From an uncultured virus (IMG/VR IMGVR_UViG_3300012933_000168) (lineage: Duplodnaviria; Heunggongvirae; Uroviricota; Caudoviricetes): a stretch of DNA of 64,000 nt. This document shows positions 975 to 63,975 of this stretch, piece after piece. Location: IMG/VR virus record IMGVR_UViG_3300012933_000168; one strand, written 5' to 3'. Within the stretch, counting starts at the first letter, position 1; every line of letters begins with the position of its first letter. Position numbers and translations under genes: made by a program. Under the pieces are notes generated by a model that did no database searches, had not been told where the DNA came from, and worked only from the letters and a program-made list of their open reading frames with translations.

Positions 975-993
975 TCGCACCATAACATTGTTA

Positions 994-37945: not shown

Positions 37946-37981
37946 AACAGAGGAGTCAGCAACTAACATTGTTAGTCTACG

Positions 37982-38176
37982 TCAGGTTCTCCAGACGCGC
38001 AATCCTTTGATTCCATCTTCTATGGTTACTTTCGTAATCACAGTGATCTTTAACCTCCGGGTTATCTGCGCGATGGTTTTTCTGGCTTCTTTGTGGTCGA
38101 TGCAGGGCACAAAGAAACTGTGCCCCTTTCGGAATTTCCCCCAGTTAAGCCGGTACGTTACCGTCTCGATCTTCAT
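37982..38176 (-). CDS. Small protein downstream of primase
   Basis: SFFVPC..GLRVWR motif. Confidence 0.7.
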   Translation of the reverse strand: MKIETVTYRLNWGKFRKGHSFFVPCIDHKEARKTIAQITRRLKITVITKVTIEDGIKGLRVWRT

Positions 38177-40997
38177 CAGTCAGCGCGTCCAGTGGCACGA
38201 GGTTGTCGAAGTTCTTGGTGTTGAAGTGCAATGCGCGCACGGCTGGGGACACCATTTTCATGCCCTTTGACATACGCTTGTTGACGGCTTCGATGAACAC
38301 ACCTTCACTAGTCAGCTGCTTAATTGCATCACGGTAGTGGATTTGGAACTTCACGCAGTAGTCTTTGAACGCCTTGGCCGCAATAAACAGGTCGCCCGTG
38401 TCGGGTTCAAACCGCATGAGCAGTTCGCCCTTCGGCTCAGACAGTGGCAGTGCTTCCATATTCGTGCGCTTATCCACCGCTCCGTTCACAACCAAGGCGT
38501 TGTTCATGTGGGAGTTGATGAAGTCGCCGAGCATGATGGTTGGGTTAGAAGCAGGTGGGGTCACTTCCTCACGCATATCCGCCAGCATACCGAGCAGCCA
38601 CTTGTAGATGGCCTTCATGTCATAGTCGTGCAAGCCGAGCTCTTGGGAAATCAAACCACCAGCAATGTTGATGGCAGCGGCGGCTGACCAGAAGCGCTCC
38701 CGTGCGGTGAACTTAACTTCTTTGTCGATACGGGCTTGGATGCTACGGACCAAGTTGGTGGCCTCTTCCAAGTTGTTGACCAACCACTGAGCATAAATGT
38801 CACCGGCGTGGCCGTAGTTCTCAAGCATCTGATGGTCAAACATGTGCTTGCCTTCTTCGACGCTGATGATCGTTGTCGGCTCAATCTTGTACTCAAGCAG
38901 ACGCATGGATTCGCCGTCGGGTGAGTTCTTTGCCGCGCCGAGTTTCTCGTAGAAGCTGGCATTGGACGATGCCAAGGTCATGTTGTTCCACTTGGTGTGG
39001 TTGGCGCGCAGTTCGTTGGTTTGCGACTTAGCGCGGTCCTTGCCTCGGCCTTGGGAGATGCTGTAAGCCAAGTCAGAGAACTCCATGGGGCTGGTGTTCG
39101 TAATCTCGTCGATGGTGTTGGGCAAGTTGTTGTGCACACCGAGACGCATCATCTTGGCATTGAGCGTGTCCTTCCACATGGACGACAACTCTTTGGGGTG
39201 GCCCCAGACACTGTTGCACATGAACAACGCTGTCGACTTACCTGAGCCTGACGACTTGTGGATGACGTTGATGATCGCGCCGCTTAAGCCCGTGAACTTC
39301 AACAATGGGGAGCCGAAAGCTGTCAGTGCTGCAAACGCATGGGGCTCAAGGCCGGGCCGTGCGTACATATTGAACACTTCTTTCCACTTCTCGAACGAAC
39401 CCGTCGGCACCATCTTCTCGGCGAACGAACGGGTAATGGCTGACGGTGGGCTGTAAAACACCCCGTCCTTTGTAATCTCGCGGTCGCCGACAATGAACTT
39501 GCTGTCGTTGTCCACCCAACCAAATTGTGTGCGCATAACTTCTGCCTTCCTCACATACTGTAAATTTTTCATGAAGGCCACGACGAAGATCGCCAGCAGC
39601 TCATGTTGTTTTTGTGTTGCCATCACACCGTGGTGTGACAGTTGTTTGCGTAGCTCATCCTTTGCAGAAATCGCTGTCGCGGGTATCGAGAACTCCTTCA
39701 CTCCGTCGTGCGGCAGGTGCAGTCGGAACAGAGCCACTTCGCCCATCTCAGGGTCTTTCATCCGCTTGACCACGTACAGGTCATGCTCGTACACCAGCAC
39801 GGGTTGGTCCTCATCGGTCTCCCCTTTGCGCCAGATACCGCCGTCCTTGCCACGTACAAAAGGAAACGGATACTCAGGAATACGGTAGCTTGTGGCTTCT
39901 CCATCTTCCTCTGTCGGTTCTTGCTCGACGACGTACTCACCGTCTTCGACTTCAGCTACGGCAATCTCCATGCCGAGCACGATTGGGGATTTGATCTTGC
40001 CTTTGTGTGGGCACCCTGCGCAGCCAGTCGGGTTGATCTTCTCGAAAGTCAGGCAGTGATGTGGGCCACCGTTGGCTACCAACTCGGCTACCTTCTTATC
40101 TACCTCGGAAGGGTTGTAGGCTGGGTACTGGCTGGACATCATGTGGGCGGCTTTGTCTTTGTCCACGCAGAACGCGGTAATTGACAGGGCCGAGCGCCAC
40201 AGGGGTTCCTCGATGGTGTCTTGGTTTTGGTAGCAGTAGTTCAGCTGTGCGCAGCCGTTCTCTGCCTTCATCATGATGTTCTTGAACCGCTTCACCTTGT
40301 TACCCATCAAGGCTTCCATCATTGGGCTGATGGACGGTAAGAAGTCAGGTTTGTCGTCAACTGGGTCGGCAGCGCCGAGCAGCTCTTTCCATTGGTCGTA
40401 CGTCAGGGTCTGCGTGTTCTCATTGAGAACAGTGACTTCCATCGGTTCGGCTTGCTTGAAGTTAAATGTGCCGGGGATGCGCAGTACCCGTGCTGCTTCG
40501 AATACGGAGGAATCCACAATAAGTCCATGCTCAACGCACAGCTCACGTAGACGGTTTGCGAGGGGGAGCCAGTCGCGGCGCTCAACTGTTTCTTCAATCA
40601 ACCAGTAGGCGTGAACGCCATAACCTGAGCTGACCATGATTGGGCGGGGCATACCTGCGGCGATGCAGAACTTCTTCAGTTCATCCAAGCCGATTTGCTG
40701 CGTGAGATACCCTTGAATGATGCCCTTGTCGTTAGGCACACCCTTTGTTGGGCCGCAGTCAATATCCATCCACAGTGCGCGGAAGTACATGGCGTTGTCT
40801 GCTGTGCGCTTATTTAGGGGGCCGTACTTGGCGCATCCGAAATACACATCAAACTTGTTGTCCACCAGTGTCTGAGCCTGTGCCTCTACTTCTTCTCTCG
40901 TATCGAAAAACTTTTGGTCTGGGTACCGTCCAAGCCCGAGCACACAATACCGGCCATCGGTGGGCAGTACGGTGTCGAGAAGGTCGAAGTTAGACAT
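38145..40997 (-). CDS. Primase-helicase (AEP-like N-terminus plus DUF927-type helicase)
   Basis: LWMDIDCG, SSGYGVHAYW, RVLRIPGT; Cys cluster; Walker A SGSGKST, IDEIT. Confidence 0.85.
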   Translation of the reverse strand: MSNFDLLDTVLPTDGRYCVLGLGRYPDQKFFDTREEVEAQAQTLVDNKFDVYFGCAKYGPLNKRTADNAMYFRALWMDIDCGPTKGVPNDKGIIQGYLTQQIGLDELKKFCIAAGMPRPIMVSSGYGVHAYWLIEETVERRDWLPLANRLRELCVEHGLIVDSSVFEAARVLRIPGTFNFKQAEPMEVTVLNENTQTLTYDQWKELLGAADPVDDKPDFLPSISPMMEALMGNKVKRFKNIMMKAENGCAQLNYCYQNQDTIEEPLWRSALSITAFCVDKDKAAHMMSSQYPAYNPSEVDKKVAELVANGGPHHCLTFEKINPTGCAGCPHKGKIKSPIVLGMEIAVAEVEDGEYVVEQEPTEEDGEATSYRIPEYPFPFVRGKDGGIWRKGETDEDQPVLVYEHDLYVVKRMKDPEMGEVALFRLHLPHDGVKEFSIPATAISAKDELRKQLSHHGVMATQKQHELLAIFVVAFMKNLQYVRKAEVMRTQFGWVDNDSKFIVGDREITKDGVFYSPPSAITRSFAEKMVPTGSFEKWKEVFNMYARPGLEPHAFAALTAFGSPLLKFTGLSGAIINVIHKSSGSGKSTALFMCNSVWGHPKELSSMWKDTLNAKMMRLGVHNNLPNTIDEITNTSPMEFSDLAYSISQGRGKDRAKSQTNELRANHTKWNNMTLASSNASFYEKLGAAKNSPDGESMRLLEYKIEPTTIISVEEGKHMFDHQMLENYGHAGDIYAQWLVNNLEEATNLVRSIQARIDKEVKFTARERFWSAAAAINIAGGLISQELGLHDYDMKAIYKWLLGMLADMREEVTPPASNPTIMLGDFINSHMNNALVVNGAVDKRTNMEALPLSEPKGELLMRFEPDTGDLFIAAKAFKDYCVKFQIHYRDAIKQLTSEGVFIEAVNKRMSKGMKMVSPAVRALHFNTKNFDNLVPLDALTDEDRDGNVPA

Positions 40998-41054
40998 ATT
41001 GATTTTCTTTTAGGGACGGCAAAGCTGGGGCCGAAGCCCCAACAGTGCACGGAT

Positions 41055-41294
41055 TTACTTTTTTGCCTTGAGGCGCGGGAGCAAACGCTCAATTTGTTCG
41101 CAGTGGTGTCGGGTCGGGAGCGTAGTGCCCCAGAACCAGTTGTAGATGGTCGCTCGACTCACATCAAGACGACCAGCTATCTCACTCACAGGAATGTTGA
41201 GTTGGATGCAAGTGCGGCCAAGGACGACGCCCCATGACTTGTCATCAGCCGCTTTGTTGGCTTCGACCAGTTGGTAGCTGTATCCGTAGCTCAT
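41055..41294 (-). CDS. Cro/XRE-like helix-turn-helix protein
   Basis: VSEIAGRLDVSRATIYNWFWG. Confidence 0.8.
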   Translation of the reverse strand: MSYGYSYQLVEANKAADDKSWGVVLGRTCIQLNIPVSEIAGRLDVSRATIYNWFWGTTLPTRHHCEQIERLLPRLKAKK

Positions 41295-41297
41295 TGC

Positions 41298-42197
41298 TTA
41301 CTCCTCGTCAGACCAAGCTTTGACCACGTCGTCCAAACCCTTTTTGGCGGTTGGAGCAGGGGCGGCAGCTTTGGCGCTTTCGCGTTTGACTGGCTCGGCA
41401 ACGTCCTCGGCCACAGGTGCGGCGGCTTTAGGAGCAGGTGCAGCCAATGCAGGGGCACGGCCCGACACGTCAGCTTGGTAAGGAGTCATCGTCACCATCT
41501 TTTGAACTTCGGGCTTCTTAGCCACTTCGCTCGTCACTGCGTACTCTTGCTTGTTGATGAAACGCGCAGGTGTGAACAGGATAGATTGGTTGTCGTTGTT
41601 CTCGTTGAAGCTGAGTTCAGTCACCACGTAGTCCAAGCTCTTGCCGTTGTTGGCCAAGTACTTGGTGTAGTTCTCAAACGTGTGTGAGTTGTCACCGTTG
41701 CCGTCGCCGAAGAGAGACTTCGATGCCAAGTTCAGTTGGTAGACTTCGCCTTCCAAAGAAGTACCAAAATCTTCCACCAAGTTCACAGCAATGCGGCGGC
41801 TGTAACGGCAAGCCTTCGATGTACCTTGACCCGAACCTTTGATGTTCTGAGCGCAGGTGTCGCAACGGCTAGCTTGAGGTGCGGTAGAACCAGCATCAGG
41901 CGCATTGCCATCGTTAGAGAAGCAGTCAGGTGCCGAAGGGTCAGCATCAGGTGTCCATGCCTTCGCGTAGAAGATACGACCGACTTTGGGGGAAGCGTTC
42001 ACGATGACAACTTCGAGGTTGCCCTTGACCTTGCCCATCTCTTCGCCGCCGACCATCTTACGGAAGATACCGTTCTTAGGCACGATGCGCTTAACGCCAG
42101 TCTTGCCAGCGAGTTGTTTGGTGAGGTCACTGACGCCAGCGGTTTGCAGGAAGTCAGGCAGGTCTTGGTTCAAAAGTGCGATGTTACTCATTTTCAT
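41298..42197 (-). CDS. Putative single-stranded DNA-binding protein
   Basis: Zn motif CDTC..N..GS..KAC; Ala/Pro linker; acidic WSDEE tail; replication module. Confidence 0.7.
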   Translation of the reverse strand: MKMSNIALLNQDLPDFLQTAGVSDLTKQLAGKTGVKRIVPKNGIFRKMVGGEEMGKVKGNLEVVIVNASPKVGRIFYAKAWTPDADPSAPDCFSNDGNAPDAGSTAPQASRCDTCAQNIKGSGQGTSKACRYSRRIAVNLVEDFGTSLEGEVYQLNLASKSLFGDGNGDNSHTFENYTKYLANNGKSLDYVVTELSFNENNDNQSILFTPARFINKQEYAVTSEVAKKPEVQKMVTMTPYQADVSGRAPALAAPAPKAAAPVAEDVAEPVKRESAKAAAPAPTAKKGLDDVVKAWSDEE

Positions 42198-42206
42198 TTA
42201 CTCCGA

Positions 42207-42626: not shown

Positions 42627-42655
42627 CTAACACTCCGTTGGTTGAAAGAAAACCG

Positions 42656-42683
42656 ACTATAACATAACTTTAGACATTGTCAA
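42656..42683 (-). promoter_or_regulatory. Sigma70-type promoter with palindrome-like -35
   Basis: TTGACA-16 nt-TATAGT with TGn extension; TAGACATTGTCAA at 42671-42683. Confidence 0.65.
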
Positions 42684-45770: not shown

Positions 45771-47553
45771 AGTTCAAGGGCAACTCCATGCCCCACTTGG
45801 GTCGGATGCGCATACACATCTCGACGTATTCCACAGCAGTCTTAACTTCCTCGGTCTTGACGATACAAGCCACCGCGTCATGCACAGTCATCACAACGTG
45901 GTACTTCTTGGCAATCATCAGCATTTGGTCGCCGATGATGATACGCGCTAGGGCTTGGCATACGTTTTCGATTACCTTCCCGCCGTAGATGCGGTTGGGG
46001 ATAACGGCTCGGCCCTTCTTGGTGTCATACACAATCTCGGTTTTGCCTGTTTCCTCGTCGGCCTTCTGACGCAGGTTGGGGTAGCGGATATACAAGCCGT
46101 TGGGCAAGCGGATGCCGTCCTTACCTTCGATCTTCAAGATGCCGTCACGTCCTAACATTGTTAGCTGGCCCCTAAGAATCGCCTCCAGCGCCGTACCGGC
46201 TTCTTTCCACAGCTTCGTGATTCGTGGGTATGTAGCTCGATATGTGTCAATGATTCGTTTCGCCTCATCGAGCTCGACGATGACGCCGAAGTTCTTAAGC
46301 TGAGCTTGAAATTTCGCCGCGCCCATGCCGTACCCCGCCCCAAGAATCGTTGTCTTTCCAACAAAGCGCTCATCTTTCGATATATCCGCAACGTCCTTGC
46401 CGTAGATAGCCGATGCCATGATTTTGTAAACGTCCTCGCCACGGTCAAATGCCTCCACTAAGTCGTCTTGCCCAGCTAGCCATGCTAGCGTACGGGCTTC
46501 AATTTGTGATGAGTCAGAGTCGATCATCAGATACCCCGCAGGTGCGAGGATAGATTTCTTCAGCGCTGACCCCCTCGGCAAGTTCTGAAGATTAAGTTTG
46601 TCATCGCCCCCCCATCGCCCAGTGTGGGCGGCGTAATAACGGAGGGGAACTGGCATGGCACCTCGCTGAGCAATCCCAATAAAACGTTCAGTTCTCGACT
46701 CCTCAATCGTAGATTTCGTACCCAGTCGGGCGGCGACGAGTGCTTGTACGGACGGATTCGGATGTTCGAGAAGTTCTTTGAACGCCTCGTCTGTCTTTGC
46801 GAAGGCATAGGTTTCCTTTCCAGTAGCAGGGCTCTTCTTCATCGGTGGCGCGACACCGAGTACCGTGAGTAGCTCGGCGAACTTGGGGTTGCTCATCAGC
46901 GTGTCTTTGTCGAAGTTCTCCAGCAGCTCAGCTTTGCGTTGCTGTTCTTTCAGCAGATGGACGCGCAACATACTCTCATCCAGTTGCAAGACTGGCTCGG
47001 TAAACATACGGATGGTCAGGTCGATCAAGCGCAACTCAGTCGGCGGGAAGTCTTGACTCATGCAGTTGAACAAGTCCCATGTCAGGCGCACGTCGTTCTT
47101 ACAGTACTCACCATACTGGGCTAGCTGTTCCTTGGGGAAGTCAGTGCGGCGCAATCCCTTCGCATCGTTGACCTCAGTGCCCTTCTCGCCGATGCCGTAG
47201 AACTCCGCCAGAACCTTCAGGCTACCGCCTACGTTCGTACCGTGAAGAGCGCGGCCCATAGATAGCGTGTCAAGCCAACCCTTCGGCTTGATTTGGAAAT
47301 GCTCGGTCAGGATGAACCCGTCGAACATAGCGTTGTGCGCCAGCGCAAGGGAGTTCTCCCAATCGAATTGCTTGAGGAACGCATACGTACCGATGGAGTC
47401 ACCTGTGTACCACTCAGGTTCACCGTCATTGACCTGCACAGCCACACCCACAACTTCAAAGCGTGGGTCGCGTACGTATTCCTCAGTAGTCTGTTTAGAG
47501 AAGCCAAGGTCGGCCCCATACGCCGACTCAAAGTCAATAGTAATAATATCCAT
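45733..47553 (-). CDS. polA: Family A DNA polymerase with 3'-5' exonuclease
   Basis: TIDFES, AHNAMFD, HTGRW, NLQNLP, DSSQIEAR, KTTILGAGYG, VHD. Confidence 0.95.
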   Translation of the reverse strand: MDIITIDFESAYGADLGFSKQTTEEYVRDPRFEVVGVAVQVNDGEPEWYTGDSIGTYAFLKQFDWENSLALAHNAMFDGFILTEHFQIKPKGWLDTLSMGRALHGTNVGGSLKVLAEFYGIGEKGTEVNDAKGLRRTDFPKEQLAQYGEYCKNDVRLTWDLFNCMSQDFPPTELRLIDLTIRMFTEPVLQLDESMLRVHLLKEQQRKAELLENFDKDTLMSNPKFAELLTVLGVAPPMKKSPATGKETYAFAKTDEAFKELLEHPNPSVQALVAARLGTKSTIEESRTERFIGIAQRGAMPVPLRYYAAHTGRWGGDDKLNLQNLPRGSALKKSILAPAGYLMIDSDSSQIEARTLAWLAGQDDLVEAFDRGEDVYKIMASAIYGKDVADISKDERFVGKTTILGAGYGMGAAKFQAQLKNFGVIVELDEAKRIIDTYRATYPRITKLWKEAGTALEAILRGQLTMLGRDGILKIEGKDGIRLPNGLYIRYPNLRQKADEETGKTEIVYDTKKGRAVIPNRIYGGKVIENVCQALARIIIGDQMLMIAKKYHVVMTVHDAVACIVKTEEVKTAVEYVEMCMRIRPKWGMELPLNCESGYGESYGDC

Positions 47554-48041
47554 CAGTACGATTCCCCTCTAACAATTAAACTAATCACTCTTTGGCTTAC
47601 ATCGAATTTGTTCGCCAGTTGTTTTTGTGTGAGCCCATGCACCTCGTAAGCCCTGCGGATTTCCGCAGCTTGCTTGTTGGTCAGCTTTGCATTTGCATGA
47701 TTCTCACCCTTGGGTTGCGCCCTACGCTTCTTAGCATAGGCGTCTAGTTGGTTGTCTGCGTACGAGCCAATGAAGAAATGCGTTGGGTTACAGCACTTGC
47801 GGTTGTCACACTTGTGCAGTACGTGGGCTTTCTCCTTCGAGTTAGTCGGCCTCGCTGGGTCTGCTACCAAATCGCTAAGCCAAGCGGCAACCCTGTGTGC
47901 CGTGTACGTCTTACCGTGCCACGCCACCGTACCGTAACCTGTGTTGTTACACGCACCCTGCCACTCCCAACACCCGTTGCGCTGACGCCTATCCCCTTGG
48001 ACTCGCGCCCAAAAAGATTCTGCTGTTTGCTTTTTTGCCAC
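47553..48041 (-). CDS. HNH homing endonuclease
   Basis: CWEWQG..GYG, AHRVA, VLHKCDNRKCCNP.H, C-terminal HTH. Confidence 0.9.
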   Translation of the reverse strand: MAKKQTAESFWARVQGDRRQRNGCWEWQGACNNTGYGTVAWHGKTYTAHRVAAWLSDLVADPARPTNSKEKAHVLHKCDNRKCCNPTHFFIGSYADNQLDAYAKKRRAQPKGENHANAKLTNKQAAEIRRAYEVHGLTQKQLANKFDVSQRVISLIVRGESY

Positions 48042-48181
48042 GTTAGACTCCTAAAACGTATTCGTATCCAGTGTACCACCTTCTTTGATAGCCCACCAAA
48101 TATCCACCGCTTTTTTAACGCGCTCTTTGTCTACGCCCTGTTGCCATAGGTATTCCATGACGAGGGCAAGTTGCTCGGCGG

Positions 48182-49035: not shown

Positions 49036-49327
49036 TTCCAAACTCCTTGATGTACGCTTCAAAATTCTCTAGGTTCGATTCCCGAACCACCCACGCATCG
49101 CCTTCGGCTTTCTCAATATCTCGGATGTTCTTCTCTTGCAACGCTGTCGGTATACCTTTACCGGCTTTCGCTTCAACTGCTAAGAACTTGCCCTTGATAC
49201 AACACAAGAAGTCAGGGACTCCACTGTTGCCGTACCCCGTGCCCATCGGCATCGCGTAGTACACGCCGTGTTCTTTCAGAATCTTCTTTATCTTCTCTTT
49301 GACTTTCGCTTCGGGTGTTGATGCCAT
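49028..49327 (-). CDS. VRR-NUC nuclease (resolvase-like)
   Basis: PEAKVK..GVPDFL..AVEAKAG..TALQ. Confidence 0.88.
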   Translation of the reverse strand: MASTPEAKVKEKIKKILKEHGVYYAMPMGTGYGNSGVPDFLCCIKGKFLAVEAKAGKGIPTALQEKNIRDIEKAEGDAWVVRESNLENFEAYIKEFGNE

Positions 49328-49387
49328 GATACTCTCTAATTAGACTTTGTCAAGAGGGCTAACATTGTTAGCCCCCCGTGTTTTTAC

Positions 49388-50008: not shown

Positions 50009-50009
50009 T

Positions 50010-50207
50010 TCAATATTCTCCAGTTTGGGTTTGTACATAGTTGGTTAGAACTTCTCGGATTTTGGCTTGCTTGTTGGGAAAGGTCTCGAAATACTCGATC
50101 ACCTCTCGCGGCAAACGCAAGCTCGTATTAACAAAGGTCGGCTTCTTACCGGGACCGCGCCCTTGTCGTTTTTTCTCGGGTTTCAGATATTCAATTCCAG
50201 TTGTCAT
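50010..50207 (-). CDS. BrnA-antitoxin-like ribbon-helix-helix protein
   Basis: GRGPGKKP..TSLRLPREVIEYF..QAKIREVL. Confidence 0.65.
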   Translation of the reverse strand: MTTGIEYLKPEKKRQGRGPGKKPTFVNTSLRLPREVIEYFETFPNKQAKIREVLTNYVQTQTGEY

Positions 50208-50225
50208 AGCAGTGCTTCCTCTTCA

Positions 50226-53637: not shown

Positions 53638-53805
53638 ACCACTAGCTTCACCAATATGCCGATGACTAACAATGTTAGGGCGTAGAGAATAATGTCGTTG
53701 ATAGTCGGCGCGGGGCGCTTGTGCGCAATCCACCATTCACCTAGGCGGTCTTGGGGGAACGCCTCTTCTAGTGTGCGTGGGTAGCATCGGGTTGTAGGCC
53801 AACCT

Positions 53806-54639
53806 TCAAATTTGGGGTTTGGTTTCTTCATCTTCATTCTCCAAAATCAACACAAAACTTTCATCATTAACTCGGCAACCTATACCAGTTACCATCGCTT
53901 CCTTCTCCACCAGCTTGAGCATACCTAGCTTGCCGCGTAGCTCGACGGGTAAAGTCACATCATCATACAGTTGTACATTGTCACGTATCTTAACAATATA
54001 TTTGCTGTCTGCCAATACCACCAATGCAGTTCTGTTGTTCTGAAACGCCTTAATAGTTTCGGCAATCGTCACCATGTCGGCTCGGACATCCTCTAACATT
54101 GTTAGGTGTTCCAGCATAGCTGTATTGTGGTTGTGCTTCAGCTCCAAGATGTACTGACTCATGTTGGCTTTTGCCCACTTATACAAGTCGTTCTCAATCG
54201 GACGCTCATGCTCACGTTGCTTGCTTTGGTTGCGATAGCTTTGATTCTCCAGTACACCCTCGGCTACCACTAACGCTTTGTTGACACGCTCGGATAGATT
54301 CATCGGGCCGAATGTCTTCTTCACTCGCAGGTACGCTTTGTCTACCTTGTCGGTGTGGTATGCGTTCTTACGTGTGTTGTTAGCACCAATGCGGTCGTTA
54401 CGCACAAACAGCTTCTGACTACTGCCGTACCACTCAGAGCCGATATAGCCCAGCTCCTCACTACCATCTACCACACGGAATGTACGGAACCCCACCACCT
54501 CGACAGTCCATAGTGGATGCTTGGTCGCCACTTCCCACGCCAGCATCTTGGCCTCGCCATGTAGCTGGTTCTCGTCAATCGGTTTCTCATTCTTACCCAT
54601 ACGCACGTTGGGCAACTTCATCAATTCAATAGCCATCAT
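53806..54639 (-). CDS. Hypothetical protein, 277 aa
   Basis: GAGGA RBS; LP.ELRGKLGMLKL C-terminus. Confidence 0.8.
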   Translation of the reverse strand: MMAIELMKLPNVRMGKNEKPIDENQLHGEAKMLAWEVATKHPLWTVEVVGFRTFRVVDGSEELGYIGSEWYGSSQKLFVRNDRIGANNTRKNAYHTDKVDKAYLRVKKTFGPMNLSERVNKALVVAEGVLENQSYRNQSKQREHERPIENDLYKWAKANMSQYILELKHNHNTAMLEHLTMLEDVRADMVTIAETIKAFQNNRTALVVLADSKYIVKIRDNVQLYDDVTLPVELRGKLGMLKLVEKEAMVTGIGCRVNDESFVLILENEDEETKPQI

Positions 54640-55885: not shown

Positions 55886-56346
55886 TTCATTTCTCCTTCA
55901 GGTTTCATATCTAACAACTTCAACTGTCGTGCAATGTCGCACACTTCCTCTTTCACCCACTCGAACGTGCGGTAGGTATCTCTCATGTGATGGCTAATGT
56001 CTGTCTCGGTGTACTCCATCAACGTAGCCACCAGCTTCGGGCTAAAGTCCCCTGCGTGTGAGCAGTCGAACCCAACCACCCACTCGTCTGTCTCCTTGTC
56101 TTTCTCCGAGTACGTCAGCCCACCATGCGCTTCAATACCCCTATCGTTGAGCCAGTCGTAGTTGAACCCGTACGCCTTGTGCCCCCTTGGTATAGCCACG
56201 TACCCGTTCAGGTGTCCGAGCGTTCCATGTCGCCACACTGTGCACTTGTACCCAGTCAGGTCATGTACCCACTCCTCGTTGTCAGGCTCGTGTTCCCACG
56301 GGCGGTCGCTTATCAGCAACTTCATCTTCTGTTCTGCATCTAACAT
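55882..56346 (-). CDS. Conserved phage protein (HGGLTY..GFDC.H)
   Basis: GHLNGYV, HGGLTY, GFDCSHAGD; ATG inside the palindrome. Confidence 0.8.
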   Translation of the reverse strand: MLDAEQKMKLLISDRPWEHEPDNEEWVHDLTGYKCTVWRHGTLGHLNGYVAIPRGHKAYGFNYDWLNDRGIEAHGGLTYSEKDKETDEWVVGFDCSHAGDFSPKLVATLMEYTETDISHHMRDTYRTFEWVKEEVCDIARQLKLLDMKPEGEMK

Positions 56347-56348
56347 TG

Positions 56349-57306
56349 TTAGCCTCCTTCATGTTTCGCGTTACTCAATAGCATCTTCACCATTCCGTGT
56401 GCTACTTCTTCACCTTCGTAGATACCCATAGGTTGCTTCTCTCCTCTCAATCCAATGGCGTACTTGTGCGAGTCGGTGATGAAGTCGCGTTGCCACTGCA
56501 CCCAAAAGCCAATCTGACCCAATGCCATGTTTGCGGATACCCACTTCATCTCGTGCTCATGCTCGTCTCTACTACTTATAGCCATCACTCCTCCTTCTTC
56601 AGTAGCTTCATGTAGTTCTTCATTTCTTTCTCGTTCAACCCCCACGCCACACGCATCCCATCCTTGCCGTAGATAGTCCACTTCCCATACTTGCGCTTGG
56701 AGTAGTAGTCGGGGTTGTACTTGTACCATTGCTCTTGGAACACGTTGGCCACCGTACCCCGCATACTCCGCGTCAATGCCTCGGCGTACTGCTTGCCAAT
56801 CCTCTCCAGCATTTCATCTTCTAGCGTACTCATATCAATCCTCGGGCTTTCCCGCCAGCTTGTACATGGCGTAGGTGTCTCTGCTAATCAGCTTCGCGTT
56901 CATTTGCTCCTCCAGCATAAAGATGTGGTGTGTCGCCCCTGTCGCTCCGTTGTACTTGCATCGGTACTTCTCCGCCTTCTCAAGTATCTTCATCAACGCC
57001 ATCGCATCCTCGACTGGCAACACCATGTCCCCGTAGGGCATCGTCACAATCATCGGCATATCAATCCTTCCATAATTCAAACAACTTCAACGTACCCTTC
57101 AGTCCATCGAACGTCAGGTTCCTGTGCACTTCATCCGTGCCGTCAAGCCTTACCCATCCACCCTTCGCGGGTTTCAATCGCCCTATGAAGTGAAAGCGCA
57201 GGTTGTAACGCCACGGCCTCCACCACACTCGGCTGACTGACCACGCATATAACTGAGATGGATGGTCGGGCGGCACCATGTACATATCCCCGCACTTAAT
57301 CTTCAT
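56349..57306 (-). CDS. Four small early genes (56349-56585, 56585-56833, 56835-57080, 57061-57306)
   Basis: Coupled ORFs with RBSs. Confidence 0.65.
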
Positions 57307-57308
57307 GT

Positions 57309-58523
57309 TTAGACTTCGAGGTAGATTGTTTTACCGTTGTCGGACACTGCGCTTGTGTTGCCACCACTGATGACCCACATAGTCGGCGCTGTCCACTCGC
57401 TACCCCAGTTCGGTACGTAGCCGTCAGTCAGCACAATCACACACTCGGGCACGATGTTCTCGTCTTTCAGGTACTGAGATACACAGCTTGGGTCTGTACC
57501 ACCACCGCCTCGTGGCTTGGTCGAGCTAACAATGTTAGATACATCACCACCCTCGTACTTCTCATGCCCTGCCACATGGCCGTCCCAGTAAATCAAGTCC
57601 ACCACCTCGGGGCTGACTTCCTCGGCGATACCCTGTACCTCGGATAAGAACTCGGCAAGCTCAGGCCCACCGATAGAACCCGATGTGTCGATAGCCACAA
57701 CCAAGTGACCAACCTTCTCGCCAATCATGCTGGGCATATACATACCTGTGCTGAGGAATCGGCGGTTCACACGACGCCATGAGCTTGTGTCTTTGTTAGA
57801 ACACGTAGCCTTAACGAAGTCGCGCAACACTTCACGCCAATCAATCTTGGGTGCAAGTAAGTCTTCCAGTTCACGGTCGAGCATCCCACCGCCTTTGCCA
57901 GCGTTCTTCTGATGTGCAATCAAGCCTTGACGAATCGCTTGGTCAATCTCACGCGCCAACTCTTTCTTCTCGTCCTCGGTCAGGTTCTCAGCGCCTTCCC
58001 AATCATGTTCATCGAAGCCGTCACCACCGCCACCGTTGGGGTCGTTCTTCTTCTCCTCTTTGAGAATGTCGTAGACCTGCTTGGTGTTCATGCCACGGAA
58101 TCGTTCGTCAACCAAGCCCATGAAGTCACCCTTCTTAGCCTTGGGGTGTCCTGTGTCCTCGGCGTAGCGTGGCATAGCGATGACTGACTCGTTCGGGTCT
58201 AAGTCCTTGAGCATCAAGTTAATCACGTAGTCCATAGCTTGATTAGCCAACTGCGCGTCCTCGGTGTGCAACTTAGTCCACGTTGTCAGGTGGCGGTACA
58301 TCTTGTGCCCAGCCTCATGCGCAATCACAAATGCCAGTTCCCTGTCGCTCATCTTCTTAACGAACGCACGGCCATACATCTCGTCGCGTCCGTTGGTACA
58401 CGCTGTCGGAATGTCATCGCGTACATGGGTCTTGCCCACCATCATCACGCCTTGTAGTAGTGCGAACTTGGGGTTGCGCATTACTGTGATTTTTGCTTTC
58501 TGCAATTTACGTTCTTCTAACAT
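57309..58523 (-). CDS. DUF2201-type metallopeptidase / vWA protein
   Basis: TACTNG, HEAGH (HExxH), DYVIN, MIDAS DTSGS, GGGGTD, LTDGY. Confidence 0.88.
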   Translation of the reverse strand: MLEERKLQKAKITVMRNPKFALLQGVMMVGKTHVRDDIPTACTNGRDEMYGRAFVKKMSDRELAFVIAHEAGHKMYRHLTTWTKLHTEDAQLANQAMDYVINLMLKDLDPNESVIAMPRYAEDTGHPKAKKGDFMGLVDERFRGMNTKQVYDILKEEKKNDPNGGGGDGFDEHDWEGAENLTEDEKKELAREIDQAIRQGLIAHQKNAGKGGGMLDRELEDLLAPKIDWREVLRDFVKATCSNKDTSSWRRVNRRFLSTGMYMPSMIGEKVGHLVVAIDTSGSIGGPELAEFLSEVQGIAEEVSPEVVDLIYWDGHVAGHEKYEGGDVSNIVSSTKPRGGGGTDPSCVSQYLKDENIVPECVIVLTDGYVPNWGSEWTAPTMWVISGGNTSAVSDNGKTIYLEV

Positions 58524-58537
58524 TGTTAGCTCCTTGT

Positions 58538-59685
58538 TTAAAAATCTGAATTGATACTTCTAGCCACACTCAACCGATAGTCGGAATAGTCCGAACGGTT
58601 CTGCTCAATGTCATCGGTGTCCTCACCGATACGCACGAACTCGTAAGCCCAGCGCCTCTCGCTAGCTTCCTCTCCATCGGCTAACTCCAAGAAGTTAGAT
58701 GCGAACCTGTTGAACGCTTGCACATCGGGGTAGCTGTCGTACCACTTCCATCCATCGCCTTCAAACATATACCCCGCATACCTACCGTTGTCTATTGGAT
58801 GTAGGTCGCCCTTCAACTCGTCGGGAAAGTTCTCGTCCACGTACAGTTTCAGTACTGGCGCGTGTTCCTTCGGCGCATAGAACGCCGCCTTTATGTCACT
58901 GCGATAGCCCATCGTTTTCCTCCTCAATACTGTTTAACAAAATACACATAGCATCGGCCTTGTCCTTCGTCTCATACTTACCCATGCCGATGTTGTCGAA
59001 CTTGCGTCTGTCGCATACCTCCCACCCCTTGAGTTGCAGGTATCCTGTTACTGAGTCAGGCTCAGTTACCCATCGTGTGAAGTACCTGTTCAAGTTCCCA
59101 TGTCCGTCTGTGTACTCGTCTCTCATGGAATCCAACTCGACTTCTGCTTGTATGCCCTTGCCAATACTTCAGCCTCGTTAATCAACATGAACAACGTAGC
59201 CTCCATCTGTGCAGGGTCGGATGTTTCCAGCAGTACCTCGCGCTTCTTTTTCGGTAGGTCGGTCTGCGTGTGTTGCGCTGTCGGTGTCTCTTGCTCCCAC
59301 TTGACCAACACGCATCGGTACTCGGGGTGCAATGCGCTGTACAACATACGGCGCTCAATGTTTAGTTGATAGCCCCACATCATGCGGTTCAAGTACTTGA
59401 ACATATCGTTGCACTTCTCCCATTCGAGCGGCCAGTCCATGTGCTTGTTCTTGTGGTTGTTCATCTGTGCATATAACATTGTTAGTCTCTCCACATCGTT
59501 AGCTTCTTGTACTCTTTCACCTGTCGGCGTACCTGTATGTGAATAGCCACAACCTCCGCCTCGTTGCCGAGTTGTTTTTGTAGGGCATCCACAACGTGTT
59601 TCCACTCCCCTGCTTGAGTGTGGCTATCCATAATCAACGTCGCCGCATCACGCACGAGTTGGTCGGTGTCAATCGTCACTAACAT
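58538..59685 (-). CDS. Four small early genes (58538-58912, 58896-59126, 59123-59479, 59482-59685)
   Basis: Coupled ORFs; starts 59479 and 59685 lie in palindromes; 58538-58912 has a KWY..Y..RIGE..DDIE motif. Confidence 0.7.
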
Positions 59686-59723
59686 TGTTAGTCTCCTAGG
59701 CGGGGTTTCCCCCGCCGTTCTCG

Positions 59724-60794
59724 TTACAGCAAGTCTTGGTTCTTAGCGACCCAGTCGGCGAACGCCTTAGCGCCGAACGCGATGGATTGTTTCGATGGTG
59801 TCTTAGCAATGTTGATTGCGAACACGGCTTGCCACTCTGCGTCGAAGCGTTCCAAGTACTCCATGAATGGGGCGATGTTGGTCTTGTCGATACGAGCGAT
59901 TGCACCGAAGATAACGATGGCACAAGCGCCAGGACTTGTCGGTACTTTCGTATGCTTAGGGTCTTTGATGGTGTCCTCCCATGATGGAAGTTGGTCAGAG
60001 AACTCGATGTACGCTTGCATATCACGAGCCGCCGCTTCACCAATCGCACCACTGAGCGCCGCGATAACAGAGTCAGAGTCATTCTGCTTACGGGTACTAA
60101 CAATGTTAGATGCCGTTGCCAGTGAACGAGGAGACACGAACGCAACCTGTGGCTTCTTGGGGTTGAAGATGTACGGGTTGTCGCCTTGTCCTGCGTCGGT
60201 ATAGCTAGCCATTGCGTGAGGGAATCGGTTAACCCACGCCAACACCTCAGCCGCGATGCCGTTGTTCATGCCCCACTCAATCCATTCCTCAGATGTTGGC
60301 TTGGCAATAGTCACGGGCACGATACGGTTCAAGCTGTGCGCCTTCATGTTGTCGCCCACACCATCGGTCGATAAGTTACCAGTCAGGAAACAGATTGTGT
60401 CCTTGGGCAATGGGATGTCACCGAGTCGTGGGTTTGCCTTCTCAAGCATGGGGTGCAACATATTCTTAACTGGGTCAGCGCCTTTGCTGAACTCGTCAAG
60501 CATGATGACCATTGGCTTGCCTGTATGAATACCGAAACGTGCGTTGGGGTAGTAGCGGGTCGTCTTAGTCTCGTGGTCAATCACGGGCATTGCAATGTCG
60601 CCCAAGTCCATGTTCGGTACGTCGATGTACGCATGGTCGTAGCCTAGTGGTGCGGCGATTGCTTCTAGCAGAGAAGACTTACCAATTCCGGGCTCACCTC
60701 GTAGCATGAAGCGGGTACTTGGGTTGGTGCGAATCAGGTTCGCGGCTTGCTTCAATGTGATGGTCTTACCAAATTTAACTTCTGACATTTTCAT
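59724..60794 (-). CDS. MoxR-like AAA+ ATPase
   Basis: GEPGIGKS, MLDEF, TGN, LNR, SPRS; vWA gene nearby. Confidence 0.88.
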   Translation of the reverse strand: MKMSEVKFGKTITLKQAANLIRTNPSTRFMLRGEPGIGKSSLLEAIAAPLGYDHAYIDVPNMDLGDIAMPVIDHETKTTRYYPNARFGIHTGKPMVIMLDEFSKGADPVKNMLHPMLEKANPRLGDIPLPKDTICFLTGNLSTDGVGDNMKAHSLNRIVPVTIAKPTSEEWIEWGMNNGIAAEVLAWVNRFPHAMASYTDAGQGDNPYIFNPKKPQVAFVSPRSLATASNIVSTRKQNDSDSVIAALSGAIGEAAARDMQAYIEFSDQLPSWEDTIKDPKHTKVPTSPGACAIVIFGAIARIDKTNIAPFMEYLERFDAEWQAVFAINIAKTPSKQSIAFGAKAFADWVAKNQDLL

Positions 60795-60902
60795 TTCCTT
60801 CGTTGATTACTGCTAACGCAGTTGTTATCTCTATGCCTAACATTGTTAGGCGACTCGTTTAAGTTCACTTGCTGGTGGGCGATAGTTATTCGCCAAGCCT
60901 TT

Positions 60903-60931
60903 ATTGTATCACAAATACTTGACAATGTCAA
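60903..60931 (-). promoter_or_regulatory. Near-consensus sigma70 promoter with palindromic -35
   Basis: TTGACA-17 nt-TACAAT; CTTGACAATGTCAAG at 60918-60932; flanked by 13-mers at 60837 and 60966. Confidence 0.85.
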
Positions 60932-60943
60932 GACCTTTGCTCC

Positions 60944-61482
60944 TCAATTCCTACCTTTGCTCTCGCTAACATTGTTAGGTTGTTCGTACCTGTTGAACTC
61001 CTCAGCCCACCATGCGTGTTCTAAGAAGAATTGGTTCTTGTGTTTCGGATATACCCTGCGTAGGCTAGTCACAGCACTCCGCATCAAGTCCTCTACATTC
61101 AGCATCACTCGGCGGCAGTCTTGCAACTGCTCGGGTGTCGTGTCGGGGTGACGCATCAACTTGAGCACACAGCTATCAGCCTTGGCCTTGTACTGCATAG
61201 TCTCTCGCCATATCTGCTTACACCTAACCAACTTCTCAGTCGGCGTAGTTGTATCTCGTGGCATCCCTGTTGGTGTGTTGGTATCTAACATTGTTAGAGC
61301 CCATGCTTCTTCTTGAACCTGTCGAACTGCCCAAAGATTCCCTCTCGCTCCTCGGGGTGCATGAACAGTATCTTGAGCATCACGCCTAAGCTATTCGCCT
61401 TCTCCCTCTCACGGAAGTAGAAGATAGTCGCGCCCACCGCCCAGCCCAGCAGGAAACATTCCGCATCACTCAGTCCAAACAT
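60944..61482 (-). CDS. Two hypothetical genes (60944-61291, 61294-61482) joined by a palindrome
   Basis: TAA 61294 and ATG 61291 both lie inside the 13-mer. Confidence 0.7.
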
Positions 61483-61483
61483 A

Positions 61484-62500
61484 TCAATCCTCCTCAGTCA
61501 TTACGTAGTCGGCATACTTGTGCGTAGGTACTTTGCCCTCGGGCAACGCCACCTTCTTGAACACCTTGTCGCTGAACATCTTGAACAGAATCCTGTCCAA
61601 CACCTTCTCGAATTGGTCAACACCCAACGTCACCTGTGACTCCATGCTGTCGCGCCAATACAAGCTCTGTTCCTGAACAAACAGAATGTTGAACGCAATC
61701 CAATAGTTTTGGTGGCGTGCGTTGTCATCTTGGTCATTCCGTACTAGGTCGAAGAACTCAGCGGTTGCCTGTCGGTAGTTACTCCACGCCTCATCCTTGT
61801 CCTCGGGTCGGTAGTACTTGGGCTTCTCGGTTATCTTCCACTTGTTGCCCACATCGGGTCGGCATCCGCCATTTACATCCTGAGACTTGCCAAACACCTC
61901 AATCAATTCCCCATACGTTGTTTTGACCACAGAGAAACCCTCACGCCCCCAAACGCCTTGAATCTCCTCACCCTTGAGCTTGATGACTCCAGCCAAGTAG
62001 TCACGGAATTGGCTCACGGACTTCCTAACATTGTTAGAGTCCTTGCGGCTCACTCGGTAGTCGTAAAGCGTCTGCGTTTCTTTTGGCAACCATCCGCCGT
62101 TTGCCGTGCGAACTAATGCCAGTTCCCCCTTGGCGGGTAGCATCGCCTTCGCGTTCGTACCTGAGAAGCCCAAGACCACCTGACCCTTGACTCGGTACGC
62201 ACCCACGCCACTCAGCACTCGGCTAATGAATTGGCACGTCGATGCACTTGGCCAGTTGTCTATGTTGATGATGACCTCATCCTCCACCGTGAACTTAATC
62301 ACGGGCGTTTGGTACAGCACACACTCGATTGCGTTTGTCCATACGTTCTTACGGATAGAGTAGGTGTCCACGTCACGACGCTCACCCAGTGGTCGCTTGT
62401 CCTCAGCCCTGCCCTTGATTGGCTTGCTGTTGTCGAACTTCTTTACTGCCTCGGCGTAGTCGCGTACCTTCGGCACTCTCATTACTGTTGCGTATCCCAT
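61484..62500 (-). CDS. Hypothetical protein, 338 aa
   Basis: AAGGAG RBS; long ORF in operon. Confidence 0.85.
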   Translation of the reverse strand: MGYATVMRVPKVRDYAEAVKKFDNSKPIKGRAEDKRPLGERRDVDTYSIRKNVWTNAIECVLYQTPVIKFTVEDEVIINIDNWPSASTCQFISRVLSGVGAYRVKGQVVLGFSGTNAKAMLPAKGELALVRTANGGWLPKETQTLYDYRVSRKDSNNVRKSVSQFRDYLAGVIKLKGEEIQGVWGREGFSVVKTTYGELIEVFGKSQDVNGGCRPDVGNKWKITEKPKYYRPEDKDEAWSNYRQATAEFFDLVRNDQDDNARHQNYWIAFNILFVQEQSLYWRDSMESQVTLGVDQFEKVLDRILFKMFSDKVFKKVALPEGKVPTHKYADYVMTEED

Positions 62501-62504
62501 TTCA

Positions 62505-63975
62505 TTACTCCTTTAAAAGTTTCTCGTATTTCTCTACCCACTCAATCGCTTGCTCGTTCGTTGGTATGCCCTCGGCGACGTACTCCCACTTGTGCCCGTT
62601 GGCAAACCTCCGAGCTTGTGGCTCCCATTGGTACCTGCGCTTGACCATCAACTCTCCGTCATGCCACCTCACGATGCACCAGTCAGGCTCCCTCTCTAAC
62701 ATTGTTAGCCCTCCTTCATGGGAACATATCCCAAGCAGATGTGCGGTCGACTAACGTGTGGTCTGCTACCGCGTCGTAATCCACCTCGAAGCGCATCATG
62801 TAGTCATGCCGCGCCAGCTTCGCCATTGCAATCAGCCTCTCCTTGTCTGTGCCCTCGGCTACTATCTCGGCGGTGTCCTCGGTCTCGCCTCTGTCTTTGA
62901 GTTGGTTCCAACACCGAACCGTTGTCTTGCTGGCTAGCCGTTTCAGGTACACCCTCGCATCTCCATCGGAGAAACTCACCAGCACATAATTCACCTTCTT
63001 CATACGCTAGCCAGTGCAACCGTTGCCCTGTCTCGTAGTTGCATCATCAGCCCTTGCGGGTTGCGCCCTAGCTTCGCGGCCAGTTGGTACATGGCGTTGC
63101 GCTTGGCATTGTTCGGGTTGGTTGCTGTCGTGTACATCGTCAGGATTTCCCCTGCGTTGTTGACTGTCACCTTGAACTTGTACTTCTCTAACATTGTTAG
63201 GTCTCCTCTGTTAATGCTTTGAATCTCATAATCTCCATCGTGTCGTCGCTCTCGGCGATAACCTCGGCTTCGTATGCCCCACGATAGAACGCTTTCTTTT
63301 GGAACTCATTCCATCTCTGCCTGTCCAGCATGAAACAATTCCCGTCCACCTTCATGCGTATCAGCACCCAAAACTTAGGCTTCTCGTGGTTGTCCATGAT
63401 TACTCTCCCTTCGCCAGTTGCACGGCTTTCTTCGCCAGCTCGTAGTCGTCGGTCTCCATCATCACTTCGCGCTTATACAAGTCCGAGTCCTTGTGTGCTT
63501 GGTTTAGCTCCCACTGCCCTCTCGTGCGTATGAAGAACTCCACGTCCCCCACCGCACTTGTGCGTCGGTACACCACCCAATCCTTCACACCCTTGGCCCT
63601 CGTACAAAGCTCCGCAACTTCACCATCTGTATAGTGGCGTAGGTGTATCTGCGGCATAAGTCGGCGTAGTCGGCTTCGCTTGTGTCCTCGTTCATGGCTA
63701 TCTCGGTGAACTGCCTCGTCATGTCTGCGTACGCCGCCTCCATGTTGAGGTACTCGGTAATCTGCTCTGCGTTAAATTTCATCTTCGTTCTCCTTCGGTT
63801 CGTTCGCTAACTCTGTTAGGTTGATTGCATCTACTAGCGTATGCCCTCGACTAACAAACTCGCATTTGGTGTTGGGTGTCTCTTGCACGTAGTTGTCCCA
63901 TGTAATGTCTCGGATGTACTCCAGCAGTCGTCTTGCATACCCTGTTCGGTAAATCACGTACTCGGCTTCATCCAT
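62505..63975 (-). CDS. Array of small early genes (62505-62702, 62716-63003, 63000-63194, 63197-63397, 63400-63657, 63772-63975)
   Basis: RBSs and overlaps; shared C-terminal strand-helix motif in most. Confidence 0.7.

Follow-up and report, generated by a model that had tools for sequence, protein, structure and literature searches.

Dispersed copies of a 13-bp palindrome in the early arm of an uncultured freshwater phage, with a co-varying first early protein as its candidate regulator

The KorB protein of IncP-1 plasmids such as RK2 exerts global control over the backbone genes through OB, a 13-bp palindrome of 6+1+6 geometry present in about a dozen near-perfect copies, which lie at varied distances from promoters and are in some cases remote or intragenic; KorB belongs to the ParB family of plasmid proteins and doubles in partition. 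Pairs of operators that bracket a promoter, such as OE at about -60 and OI at about +54 in gal, are used by GalR/LacI proteins for repression by looping. Two further 13-bp elements are the start-associated sequences (SAS) of Cluster K mycobacteriophages, which are conserved, asymmetric and placed just upstream of many start codons, and matS, through which MatP, a host ribbon-helix-helix (RHH) protein, organises the 800-kb Ter macrodomain of enterobacteria. The operator/stoperator network of Cluster A mycobacteriophages is read by binders such as L5 gp71, Bxb1 gp69 and the TipsytheTRex repressor. According to the portions of the two reports available to us (PMC6550527, PMC9283540), its sites are asymmetric, keep one orientation relative to transcription and occupy short intergenic spaces of the whole genome, on both arms, and its binder is a monomer with a helix-turn-helix (HTH) and a 'stoperator' domain, encoded by temperate phages. 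Here we analyse a 64,000-nt stretch of an uncultured virus of the class Caudoviricetes (IMGVR_UViG_3300012933_000168), hereafter the window, which carries many dispersed copies of a 13-bp palindrome, CTAACAWTGTTAG, and encodes a 171-aa candidate regulator as its first early protein. In the reading that we modestly favour, the copies form a dispersed operator network that a dimer of the 171-aa protein binds and through which early transcription is controlled, likely by repression. That the palindrome is a selected protein-binding DNA site is highly probable, and the 171-aa protein is quite probably its binder.

A pattern count finds 21 exact matches to CTAACAWTGTTAG in the window, at the same start positions that an earlier note on this DNA had listed, whereas none of 100 dinucleotide-preserving shuffles of the window contains any (expected number 0). 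With up to two mismatches allowed, there are 24 matches against a shuffle mean of 1.11, and the three extra ones are the near copies at 982, 59473 and 63807 already named in that note. All 21 copies are located within 37963-64000 or 1-1968, which together make up the leftward early arm of 28.3 kb (P = 3.7e-8 under uniform placement). Positions 1969-37962 hold zero exact copies, a result that applies to the readable part of the virion arm, since 16030-16802 is a run of 773 N that appears as a zero-GC dip in the composition profile. The positions of two copies at the arm boundaries were likewise reproduced (37963 in the convergent gap, 1956 before the first early gene), as was the rise in density towards the ends of the window: 11 copies fall in 56-64 kb and five in 0-2 kb, against five in 37.9-56 kb. 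The earlier description of the palindrome as a mark of the whole early/replication arm has to be narrowed. The promoter-proximal early module (56-64 kb plus 0-2 kb) holds 16 of the 21 copies, few are found in the replication genes, and in the relatives the array stops before the polymerase block.

The plus-strand virion arm (2.4-37.9 kb) encodes the terminase, the capsid protein, an SU10-type adaptor, a GH19 lysis enzyme and a 2034-aa polyvalent protein. The minus-strand early arm encodes a DUF927 primase-helicase, an SNF2 helicase, a PD-(D/E)XK nuclease, a family A polymerase, an AAA ATPase with a DUF2201/vWA partner and many small open reading frames (ORFs). The relative G001, whose early proteins are mostly ~60-99% identical to those of the window, is 64,157 bp long and has terminal repeats; the window is thus nearly a whole genome, and its early arm spans the window ends.

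With respect to coding, the copies in the window fall into three groups. Seven are intragenic, as had been reported (46152, 53666, 54093, 57526, 60097, 60966 and 62025), and six are intergenic without a start codon (1143, 1272, 1956, 37963, 49359 and 60837). In the remaining eight, a point absent from the earlier note, the central ATG of the palindrome is a start codon (191, 515, 56340, 58517, 59679, 61285, 62696 and 63188); a clear Shine-Dalgarno sequence directly precedes the palindrome in six of these eight, and in three the preceding gene also ends on the palindrome's TAA. This use of TAA and ATG is a by-product of site location, because the sites sit in very short gene junctions, and with only 54 of 325 distinct copies in the relatives placed at starts (271 elsewhere), codon use is opportunistic and not the purpose of the element. 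Under a strict test, 40% of the copies in relatives are intragenic-like, compared to 62% of random positions in the same regions. The central base on the plus strand is T in 18 of the 21 window copies, again as reported; these 18 read CTAACAATGTTAG in the early-gene sense and, since the early genes are on the minus strand, give ...CAATG... in mRNA sense. Among the 325 copies in relatives the central base is A in 183 and T in 136, without a strong orientation rule.

Relatives were collected by scanning viral contigs with the DUF2201/vWA protein; the scan matched 144, and 80 loci were retained. Most of these loci have the same 13-mer as their top palindrome, with up to 22 copies at 57% protein identity, and ~22 of them lack it. 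Among the complete or near-complete relatives, G001 has 16 copies, G002 nine, G003 13, G004 12 and G005 one; those of G002 are clustered within 9 kb of 63.6 kb and those of G004 within 11.4 kb. Most of the small early ORFs between the sites have no homologue in G002-G005, so variable are they. Metagenome runs that contain parts of the early arm have freshwater or aquatic labels and come from 13 studies. A nucleotide search with the early and virion arms gave no match in 50,697 phage records, and the closest cultured relative by terminase, Phage DSL-LC04, has no repeated palindrome in its first 50 kb.

As judged from codon choice and from retention in relatives, the motif is under selection at the DNA level, as the earlier note had proposed. 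At the AAA ATPase site (60097) we compared 46 distinct orthologous 45-nt sequences around the conserved peptide ASNIV(S/R). The exact spelling TCT AAC ATT GTT AG is found in 26 of them, and in the same 26 the adjoining Ser, Leu, Thr, Ala and Arg codons each use four to five alternatives. The other 20 encode the same peptide by other codons, and include L003 and L005, whose proteins are 97.5-97.7% identical to those of the window. The exact site goes together with at least two other copies in the locus (38/2 against 3/19). In comparison with G001, the intergenic copies are retained through flanking indels and four of the seven intragenic ones are preserved fully or almost fully; copy 1143 is kept with its central base flipped, copy 49359 is kept, and copy 58517 is kept beside a 28-bp insertion. 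The 56 one-mismatch copies in motif-rich regions have their mismatches only at positions 1/13 and 6/8, with outer-base variants as the commonest class, and the mirror counts relative to the transcribed strand are 16|21, 6|4, 1|2 and 3|3. Such a spectrum fits a symmetric recogniser, and together with the homodimer predicted below it is in line with the earlier suggestion of a dimeric one.

The presence of 59 early ORFs of the window was tabulated against the five relatives G001-G005. The 171-aa ORF is the only one of the 59 that is present in G001-G004 and yet absent from the motif-poor G005, and in each of G001-G004 its gene lies at the upstream edge of the array. In a family-by-family association the 171-aa family is the top positive one (23 of 54 motif-rich against one of 28 motif-poor sequences, many of the loci being too short to include the gene). 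The association was also examined in reverse, on loci collected by the 171-aa protein (sub-alignment query) and not by the motif. All 20 distinct loci with at least 3 kb downstream of the regulator gene have at least three copies there, 331 copies were counted in 196 kb downstream against three in 247 kb upstream, and a copy is located at most 220 bp upstream or at most 70 bp downstream of the regulator gene in 38 of 39 genes. The earlier note had put forward the 171-aa protein along with an HTH (41055-41294) and an RHH (50010-50207) protein as candidate binders; the first tracks the motif, and the latter two have homologues in the motif-poor G005 (56% and 65% identity). A large protein collection contains 208 homologues of the 171-aa protein, none of them named and none with a Pfam domain. 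No homologue was found in the 50,697 phage records, and no relative in one genome per species of 185,579 prokaryote species.

The structural model of the 171-aa protein (predicted local distance difference test, pLDDT, 86) is all-helical, with a helical bundle (residues 8-104) that an acidic linker joins to a C-terminal part, also helical (115-167). A homodimer was predicted with a score of 0.67, the best of three controls scoring 0.00; of proteins with solved structures, 20 of 30 pairs and one of 23 single chains reach this mark. At least 97% of the contacts are common to the runs, and the partner pLDDT is at least 79. The prediction supports, but does not show, pairing as a symmetric homodimer. 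The conserved NPS..W.RVRKYA helix lies largely outside the predicted interface, and we infer from the model that it is a candidate DNA-reading helix.

Where the motif seemed to be missing, the relatives have a different palindrome and, with it, a divergent member of the 171-aa family. The palindrome CTGACAWWTGTCAG pairs with the subfamily of L003, L005 and L006, NTAACAWWTGTTAN with that of L014, L044 and L057, CTAACAATTGTTAG with L021 and TAACATNATGTTA with L030, so that at least four protein subfamilies are matched to four spellings, spacer-2 forms included, and the gene of each subfamily is flanked by its own spelling. Phages that are ~97% identical in their other proteins can differ in motif type, and they then differ in first-gene subfamily too. 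The other spelling replaces window sites 515, 57526 and 49359 at the same places in relatives. The central ATG of copy 515 opens a 69-codon ORF, and the equivalent site in relatives lies ahead of the first ORF after promoter 603; L005 has CTGACAAATGTCAG at the orthologous place, and L006 has CTGACAAATGTCAG in the place of copy 49359. At the codons of site 57526, L005 and L006 carry CTGACATTTGTCAG with the reading frame kept. The earlier proposal of DNA-level selection accords with this respelling in relatives of other types. L006 itself is a mosaic, a 32.5-kb contig with eight window-type and eight CTGACAWWTGTCAG sites interleaved and one regulator, of the second type, which suggests recent exchange between phages of different types.

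Relative to predicted transcription starts, the sites peak ~75 bp upstream and ~45 bp downstream. The window has three strong early-strand sigma-70-like promoters (603-575, 60931-60903 and 49353-49326), and the second of them is bracketed by copies 60966 (at about -76) and 60837 (at about +53), 129 bp apart. In the relatives, 130 distinct strong sense-strand sigma-70-like promoters were considered, with motif centres counted at up to 150 bp; there are 118 such centres, 39 of them in the interval -90 to -61 and 53 in the interval +30 to +59. The regulator's own unit follows a similar pattern among 38 distinct relatives: 35 have a site 114-169 bp before the ATG, 22 a second one 18-56 bp before it, 17 a promoter of at least 10/12 between both upstream sites, and 23 a site 21-39 bp past the stop codon, an arrangement to which copies 1956 and 1272 of the window conform. 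Adjacent spacings of 110-145 bp are found in only 21 of 526 cases, eight of which enclose a strong promoter, so that only some of the sites are paired. The location of sites at gene ends and starts around promoter-bearing gaps could by itself account for part of this geometry.

These fixed positions at sigma-70-like promoters point to transcription control, and a mechanism can be proposed along the following lines. The first transcription unit of the early arm would supply the first early protein, and the bracketing of this unit by sites for that protein implies autoregulation. Its symmetric homodimer would then occupy the ~20 sites of the early (host-takeover) module, many of them at fixed spots around host-type promoters and the rest at gene junctions and within genes. 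Most likely, host RNA polymerase would then transcribe the early genes less or not at all, owing to a roadblock at the downstream sites that may be aided by looping between paired sites. Copy 49359, beside a -35 element, may bring the replication-block promoter under the same switch.

Several observations weigh against this interpretation. The promoters are consensus matches, and the direction of the effect, repression or activation, is read from site positions only. Compared with typical transcription-factor sites, those of the array show far less degeneracy. G001 lacks three of the seven intragenic copies, and the counts across relatives are not phylogenetically independent. No known DNA-binding fold or family is recognised in the 171-aa protein: Pfam and PHROGs give no family, PDB sequences give no match at E below 0.03, and a Foldseek search of PDB with the model returns nothing at E <= 0.001; the best VIA hit, the KaiA helical bundle (Z 7.1 over 80 residues, root-mean-square deviation 3.1 Å), is in the noise range for helical models. 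In the ESM Atlas the nearest named cluster, DUF3102 at 0.82, is under the lead threshold. The pairing of site and protein also has its exceptions. In L006 and L044, window-type copies stand beside another type on contigs that encode only the other subfamily, and the proteins of L020 and L021 are closely related yet their sites differ in spacer length. L059, L063, L064 and L078 have four to seven copies of TAACA-N(1-3)-TGTTA, and their first early gene belongs to an unrelated ~170-aa family (family 2; hhalign probability 2%); a gene of the 171-aa family (family 1) was not found in the three whole contigs searched (31-39% complete).

Family 2 occupies the first early position in some relatives, with two copies in G005 (Table 1). 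Its genes are preceded by a strong TTGACA-17-TACAAT promoter and flanked by AGGGT(T/A)(T/A)ACCCT palindromes; in L059, L063, L064 and L078 the flanking sequence is AGGGTTTACCCT, as in the relatives of G005. Proteins of this family may be regulators of an analogous kind, with a small number of sites. Membership of the 171-aa family was considered for both 169-aa first early proteins of G005 and rejected (hhalign probability 2-3%). A phage search with family 2 gave six loci and no additional complete genome.

Among the alternatives, an unlikely one keeps the same sites and the same binder and assigns them another job, namely the activation or timing of delayed-early or middle promoters, or the organisation, protection or replication of a DNA domain. 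A position ~75 bp upstream is also classic for an activator, and copy 49359 lies directly upstream of the -35 of the replication-block promoter, but the commonest position, +30 to +59 (53 of 118), suits a roadblock or a loop and not activation. Also in favour of another job are the intragenic-like 40% of the 325 copies and copy 37963 at the arm boundary, and the noncoding 0.6-1.15 kb segment, with nine of the 13 TGTTACG repeats, could be an origin. Against it stand the lack of any ParB, partition or replication-initiator signature in the 171-aa protein and the paucity of sites in the replication genes themselves. Nothing links the sites to genome ends or packaging. The ideas of the earlier note that a protein coats the arm, organises it or pulls in the DNA gained no specific support, and the promoter-fixed positions indicate transcription control.

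It is also improbable, somewhat more so than a change of job, that the palindrome is recognised by a factor of the host or by a different phage protein, such as the HTH or the RHH protein named above, and that the 171-aa gene merely travels along. This explanation would cover the fragmentary relatives that have window-type sites and no family-1 gene, the window-type sites of L006 and L044 next to the gene of another subfamily only, and the failure to recognise a DNA-binding fold in the 171-aa protein. A precedent of sorts is MtvA, an unrelated MazE-like antitoxin, which in the part of the report available is described as binding the same 11-bp core, TAACATTGTTA (PMC11826091); recognition of this core is thus open to proteins of other folds. 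However, homologues of the HTH and RHH proteins are present in the motif-poor G005, every subfamily gene is bracketed by its own spelling, and the spelling shifts with the first-gene subfamily among ~97%-identical phages, which a shared host factor would not explain. The MtvA lead was dropped because no AbrB/MazE-type match exists among the 59 early ORFs scanned.

We give very little credence to an RNA element, in which the hairpin CUAAC-ANU-GUUAG at starts and junctions would be read by a translational repressor or an RNase, on the model of T4 RegA or of lambda N with boxB. Eight of the 21 window copies hold a start codon with a Shine-Dalgarno sequence immediately upstream, as do 54 of the 325 in relatives by position at starts; the arm changes between types are compensatory (CTAAC/GTTAG vs CTGAC/GTCAG), the loop could vary (spacer 1-3), and two copies belong to longer, strong hairpins of -14 kcal/mol. 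The bare element, by contrast, is weak (a 5-bp stem and a 3-nt loop, -2.4 kcal/mol) and in one of the two ordinary contexts tried folds no better than shuffles, none of the 56 one-mismatch copies has a wobble-preserving arm change, 271 of the 325 copies are away from starts, and the sites upstream of promoters and at 37963 have no translation start to control. The mirror-symmetric mismatches, the weak hairpin and the sites upstream of promoters and between the arms speak for recognition of symmetric duplex DNA and give no support to an RNA hairpin.

The least probable alternative, recombination boundaries for the exchange of early-gene cassettes without dedicated regulation, comparable to the promoter/stem-loop cassettes of T4-type phages, agrees with the many copies exactly at gene junctions, the variable small early ORFs and the mosaic of two site types in L006, but leaves unexplained the intragenic copies kept at synonymous sites, the fixed promoter distances and the co-variation with one protein, and 13 bp is very short for homology-driven exchange, which may still occur at the sites as a side effect.

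Two further candidates were rejected. One was that the sites are hairpin promoters of an N4-type virion RNA polymerase; LPD39, a polyvalent-protein domain, is the only domain seen in the 2034-aa protein, and site orientation is not fixed. A MotA-box-type middle-promoter element was dropped, there being no consistent -10 downstream of the sites.

Table 1. Coordinates of the candidate regulator gene, palindrome copies and predicted promoters of the window, and of family 2 genes in relatives
Feature	Location	Strand	Remarks
Candidate regulator gene	1310..1825	-	First early ORF, 171 aa; all-helical, two-domain; no known family
Operator copy (putative)	1956..1968	.	Centre 137 bp upstream of regulator start codon; kept in G001 despite flanking indels
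Operator copy (putative)	1272..1284	.	26 nt past regulator stop codon, directly after GC-rich hairpin
Intergenic copy	1143..1155	.	Within extended 23-bp palindrome, terminator-like; RNA hairpin -14 kcal/mol
Near copy	982..994	.	Outermost-base mismatch; noncoding region
Copy	515..527	.	~47 bp downstream of predicted transcription start of promoter 603-575
Sigma-70-like early promoter	575..603	-	TTGACT, 17 nt, TACAAT, with TG; 10/12, consensus match only
Copy	191..203	.	Central ATG starts small Cys-rich ORF; GAGGGG upstream
Copy	37963..37975	.	59-bp gap between convergent virion and early arms; kept in G001
Intragenic copy	46152..46164	.	Family A DNA polymerase gene, peptide LTMLG; not conserved in G001
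Copy	49359..49371	.	Ends 5 nt before -35 hexamer of promoter 49353-49326, head of replication block
Sigma-70-like promoter	49326..49353	-	TTGACA, 16 nt, TATCAT; 11/12, consensus match
Intragenic copy	53666..53678	.	Central A on plus strand; kept in G001
Intragenic copy	54093..54105	.	277-aa ORF; not conserved in G001
Gene-junction copy	56340..56352	.	TAA ends 126-aa ORF, ATG starts 154-aa ORF; AAGGAGG upstream; kept in G001
Intragenic copy	57526..57538	.	DUF2201 metallopeptidase/vWA gene, peptide SNIVS
Copy	58517..58529	.	ATG starts 404-aa DUF2201/vWA gene; AAGGAG upstream
Near copy	59473..59485	.	Outer-base mismatch
Copy	59679..59691	.	ATG starts 67-aa ORF; preceded by GC hairpin and TAGGAGA
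Intragenic copy	60097..60109	.	AAA ATPase gene, peptide SNIVS; spelled TCT AAC ATT GTT AG
Intergenic copy	60837..60849	.	~53 bp downstream of predicted start of promoter 60931-60903; ahead of AAA gene
Sigma-70-like promoter	60903..60931	-	TTGACA, 17 nt, TACAAT, with TG; 11/12, consensus match
Copy	60966..60978	.	~76 bp upstream of promoter 60931-60903 start; 3' end of 115-aa ORF
Gene-junction copy	61285..61297	.	TAA stop and ATG start; G001 has spacer-2 form CTAACATTTGTTAG
Intragenic copy	62025..62037	.	338-aa ORF, peptide SNNVR; not conserved in G001
Copy	62696..62708	.	ATG starts 65-aa ORF; GAAGGAGGG upstream
Gene-junction copy	63188..63200	.	TAA stop and ATG start; AGAGGAGA upstream; kept in G001
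Two-mismatch near copy	63807..63819	.	CTAACTCTGTTAG on plus strand; status doubtful
Family 2 genes, L094 (G005)	9338-9847, 10399-10908		
Family 2 gene, L059	4841-5353		
Family 2 gene, L063	4465-4974		
Family 2 gene, L064	4265-4789		
Family 2 gene, L078	253-771		

Other repeats are found next to the array. The -35 of promoter 60931 is located inside a 15-bp palindrome of its own, CTTGACATTGTCAAG (60918-60932, minus strand), and TTGACANTGTCAA, with the same 6+1+6 geometry as the putative operator, recurs among the top palindromes of several relatives, for example L008, L014, L034, L054, L057, L074, L076 and L077. Beside the regulator gene, the mostly noncoding stretch 489-1137 contains nine of the 13 TGTTACG/CGTAACA heptamers of the window, often in the form TGTTACGTTT, as well as a duplicated ~35-bp segment, AATACCAGTTCTCCGA...GTAGCGACC. 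This stretch could be an origin, or could provide half-sites for the 171-aa or another protein.

Elsewhere, a tRNA-Asn gene (anticodon GTT; 2208-2283, plus strand) occupies the divergent gap between the arms, and the minus-strand ORFs over it are spurious. The polymerase gene is followed directly by an ORF for an HNH/His-Me endonuclease with an HTH tail (47553-48041, minus strand), probably inserted as a homing endonuclease; G001-G005 have no homologue of it. The nearest cultured homologues of the AAA ATPase (59724-60794, minus strand) and the DUF2201/vWA protein (57309-58523, minus strand), at ~30% identity, come from podophages of Pectobacterium, Kosakonia and Acinetobacter and from Bacillus phage G; in the searches run, the window phage showed no other resemblance to these phages.

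If confirmed, the dispersed operator network would mean that a large and widespread group of uncultured freshwater phages keeps its early block under one palindrome and one protein of an undescribed family. It would add a new sequence-specific DNA-binding fold with several orthogonal specificities, usable as regulatory parts, and would provide a readable marker of 'early' DNA in metagenomic phage genomes and a test case for regulator/operator co-diversification outside lysogeny. The synonymous-site signal in conserved genes indicates that such sites can strongly constrain coding sequence. A more speculative extension, which we regard as doubtful, is that these apparently lytic freshwater phages have an immunity-like lock-and-key, in which the first early protein of a resident phage silences the early genes of later relatives with the same palindrome. 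If true, it would drive the divergence into at least five site-and-protein types among phages otherwise up to ~97% identical, would account for the mosaics and orphan sites, and would represent heteroimmunity without lysogeny, exerted by a DNA-binding family without a described fold relative.

Comparison with the systems outlined at the beginning reveals partial likenesses to each of them. The array is closest to KorB/OB in site geometry, with many near-perfect 6+1+6 copies at varied promoter distances; unlike KorB, neither the 171-aa protein nor any of the other 58 early ORFs has a ParB-type Pfam match, and the sites belong to a phage early region. As in the gal pairs, identical palindromes flank a promoter at about -75 and +45, 108-129 bp apart and without overlapping it, and the window pair 60966/60837 represents two sites ~11-12 helical turns apart that stay off the -35 and -10; unlike in gal, the 171-aa protein has no LacI-family match and the pairs are only a subset. 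The recurrence of a 13-bp sequence at translation starts resembles the Cluster K SAS, from which the window differs in that eight of 21 copies are at starts, with the codon inside the palindrome, and the rest are intragenic or promoter-associated. The earlier comparison with matS holds for a 13-bp palindrome of similar geometry that marks one domain and for nothing beyond geometry: the RHH-like ORF (50010-50207) does not track the motif and has no Pfam match, and the sites follow promoters and junctions.

The operator/stoperator network of Cluster A is the closest known system. As far as the available portions of the reports describe that network, the likeness extends to 20-30 copies of a 13-bp site across transcription units with few in promoters, to good conservation of the sites within a genome and co-variation of consensus and binder among related phages, to clustering around the regulator's gene, and to a proposed block of initiation and elongation, which for the window is suggested by site positions. 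Where Cluster A has at least 20 dispersed copies mostly outside promoters, the window has 21, a minority of them next to predicted promoters. The window site is, in contrast, a perfect palindrome without an orientation rule, its array is confined to the early arm, 40% of the copies in relatives are intragenic-like, and the 171-aa protein shows no relationship to the Cluster A binders, has no HTH or Pfam match and is a predicted homodimer. Nor did signs of lysogeny emerge: no integrase or partition family came up among the 90 window ORFs scanned, and no relative of the protein in the bacterial genomes searched. The window array does not belong to the Cluster A type of network, because the sites there are asymmetric, oriented and present on both arms, and are read by a monomeric HTH binder in temperate phages. 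In the literature searched we found no description of the motif strings as a phage element, nor of a palindromic early-region system like this one.

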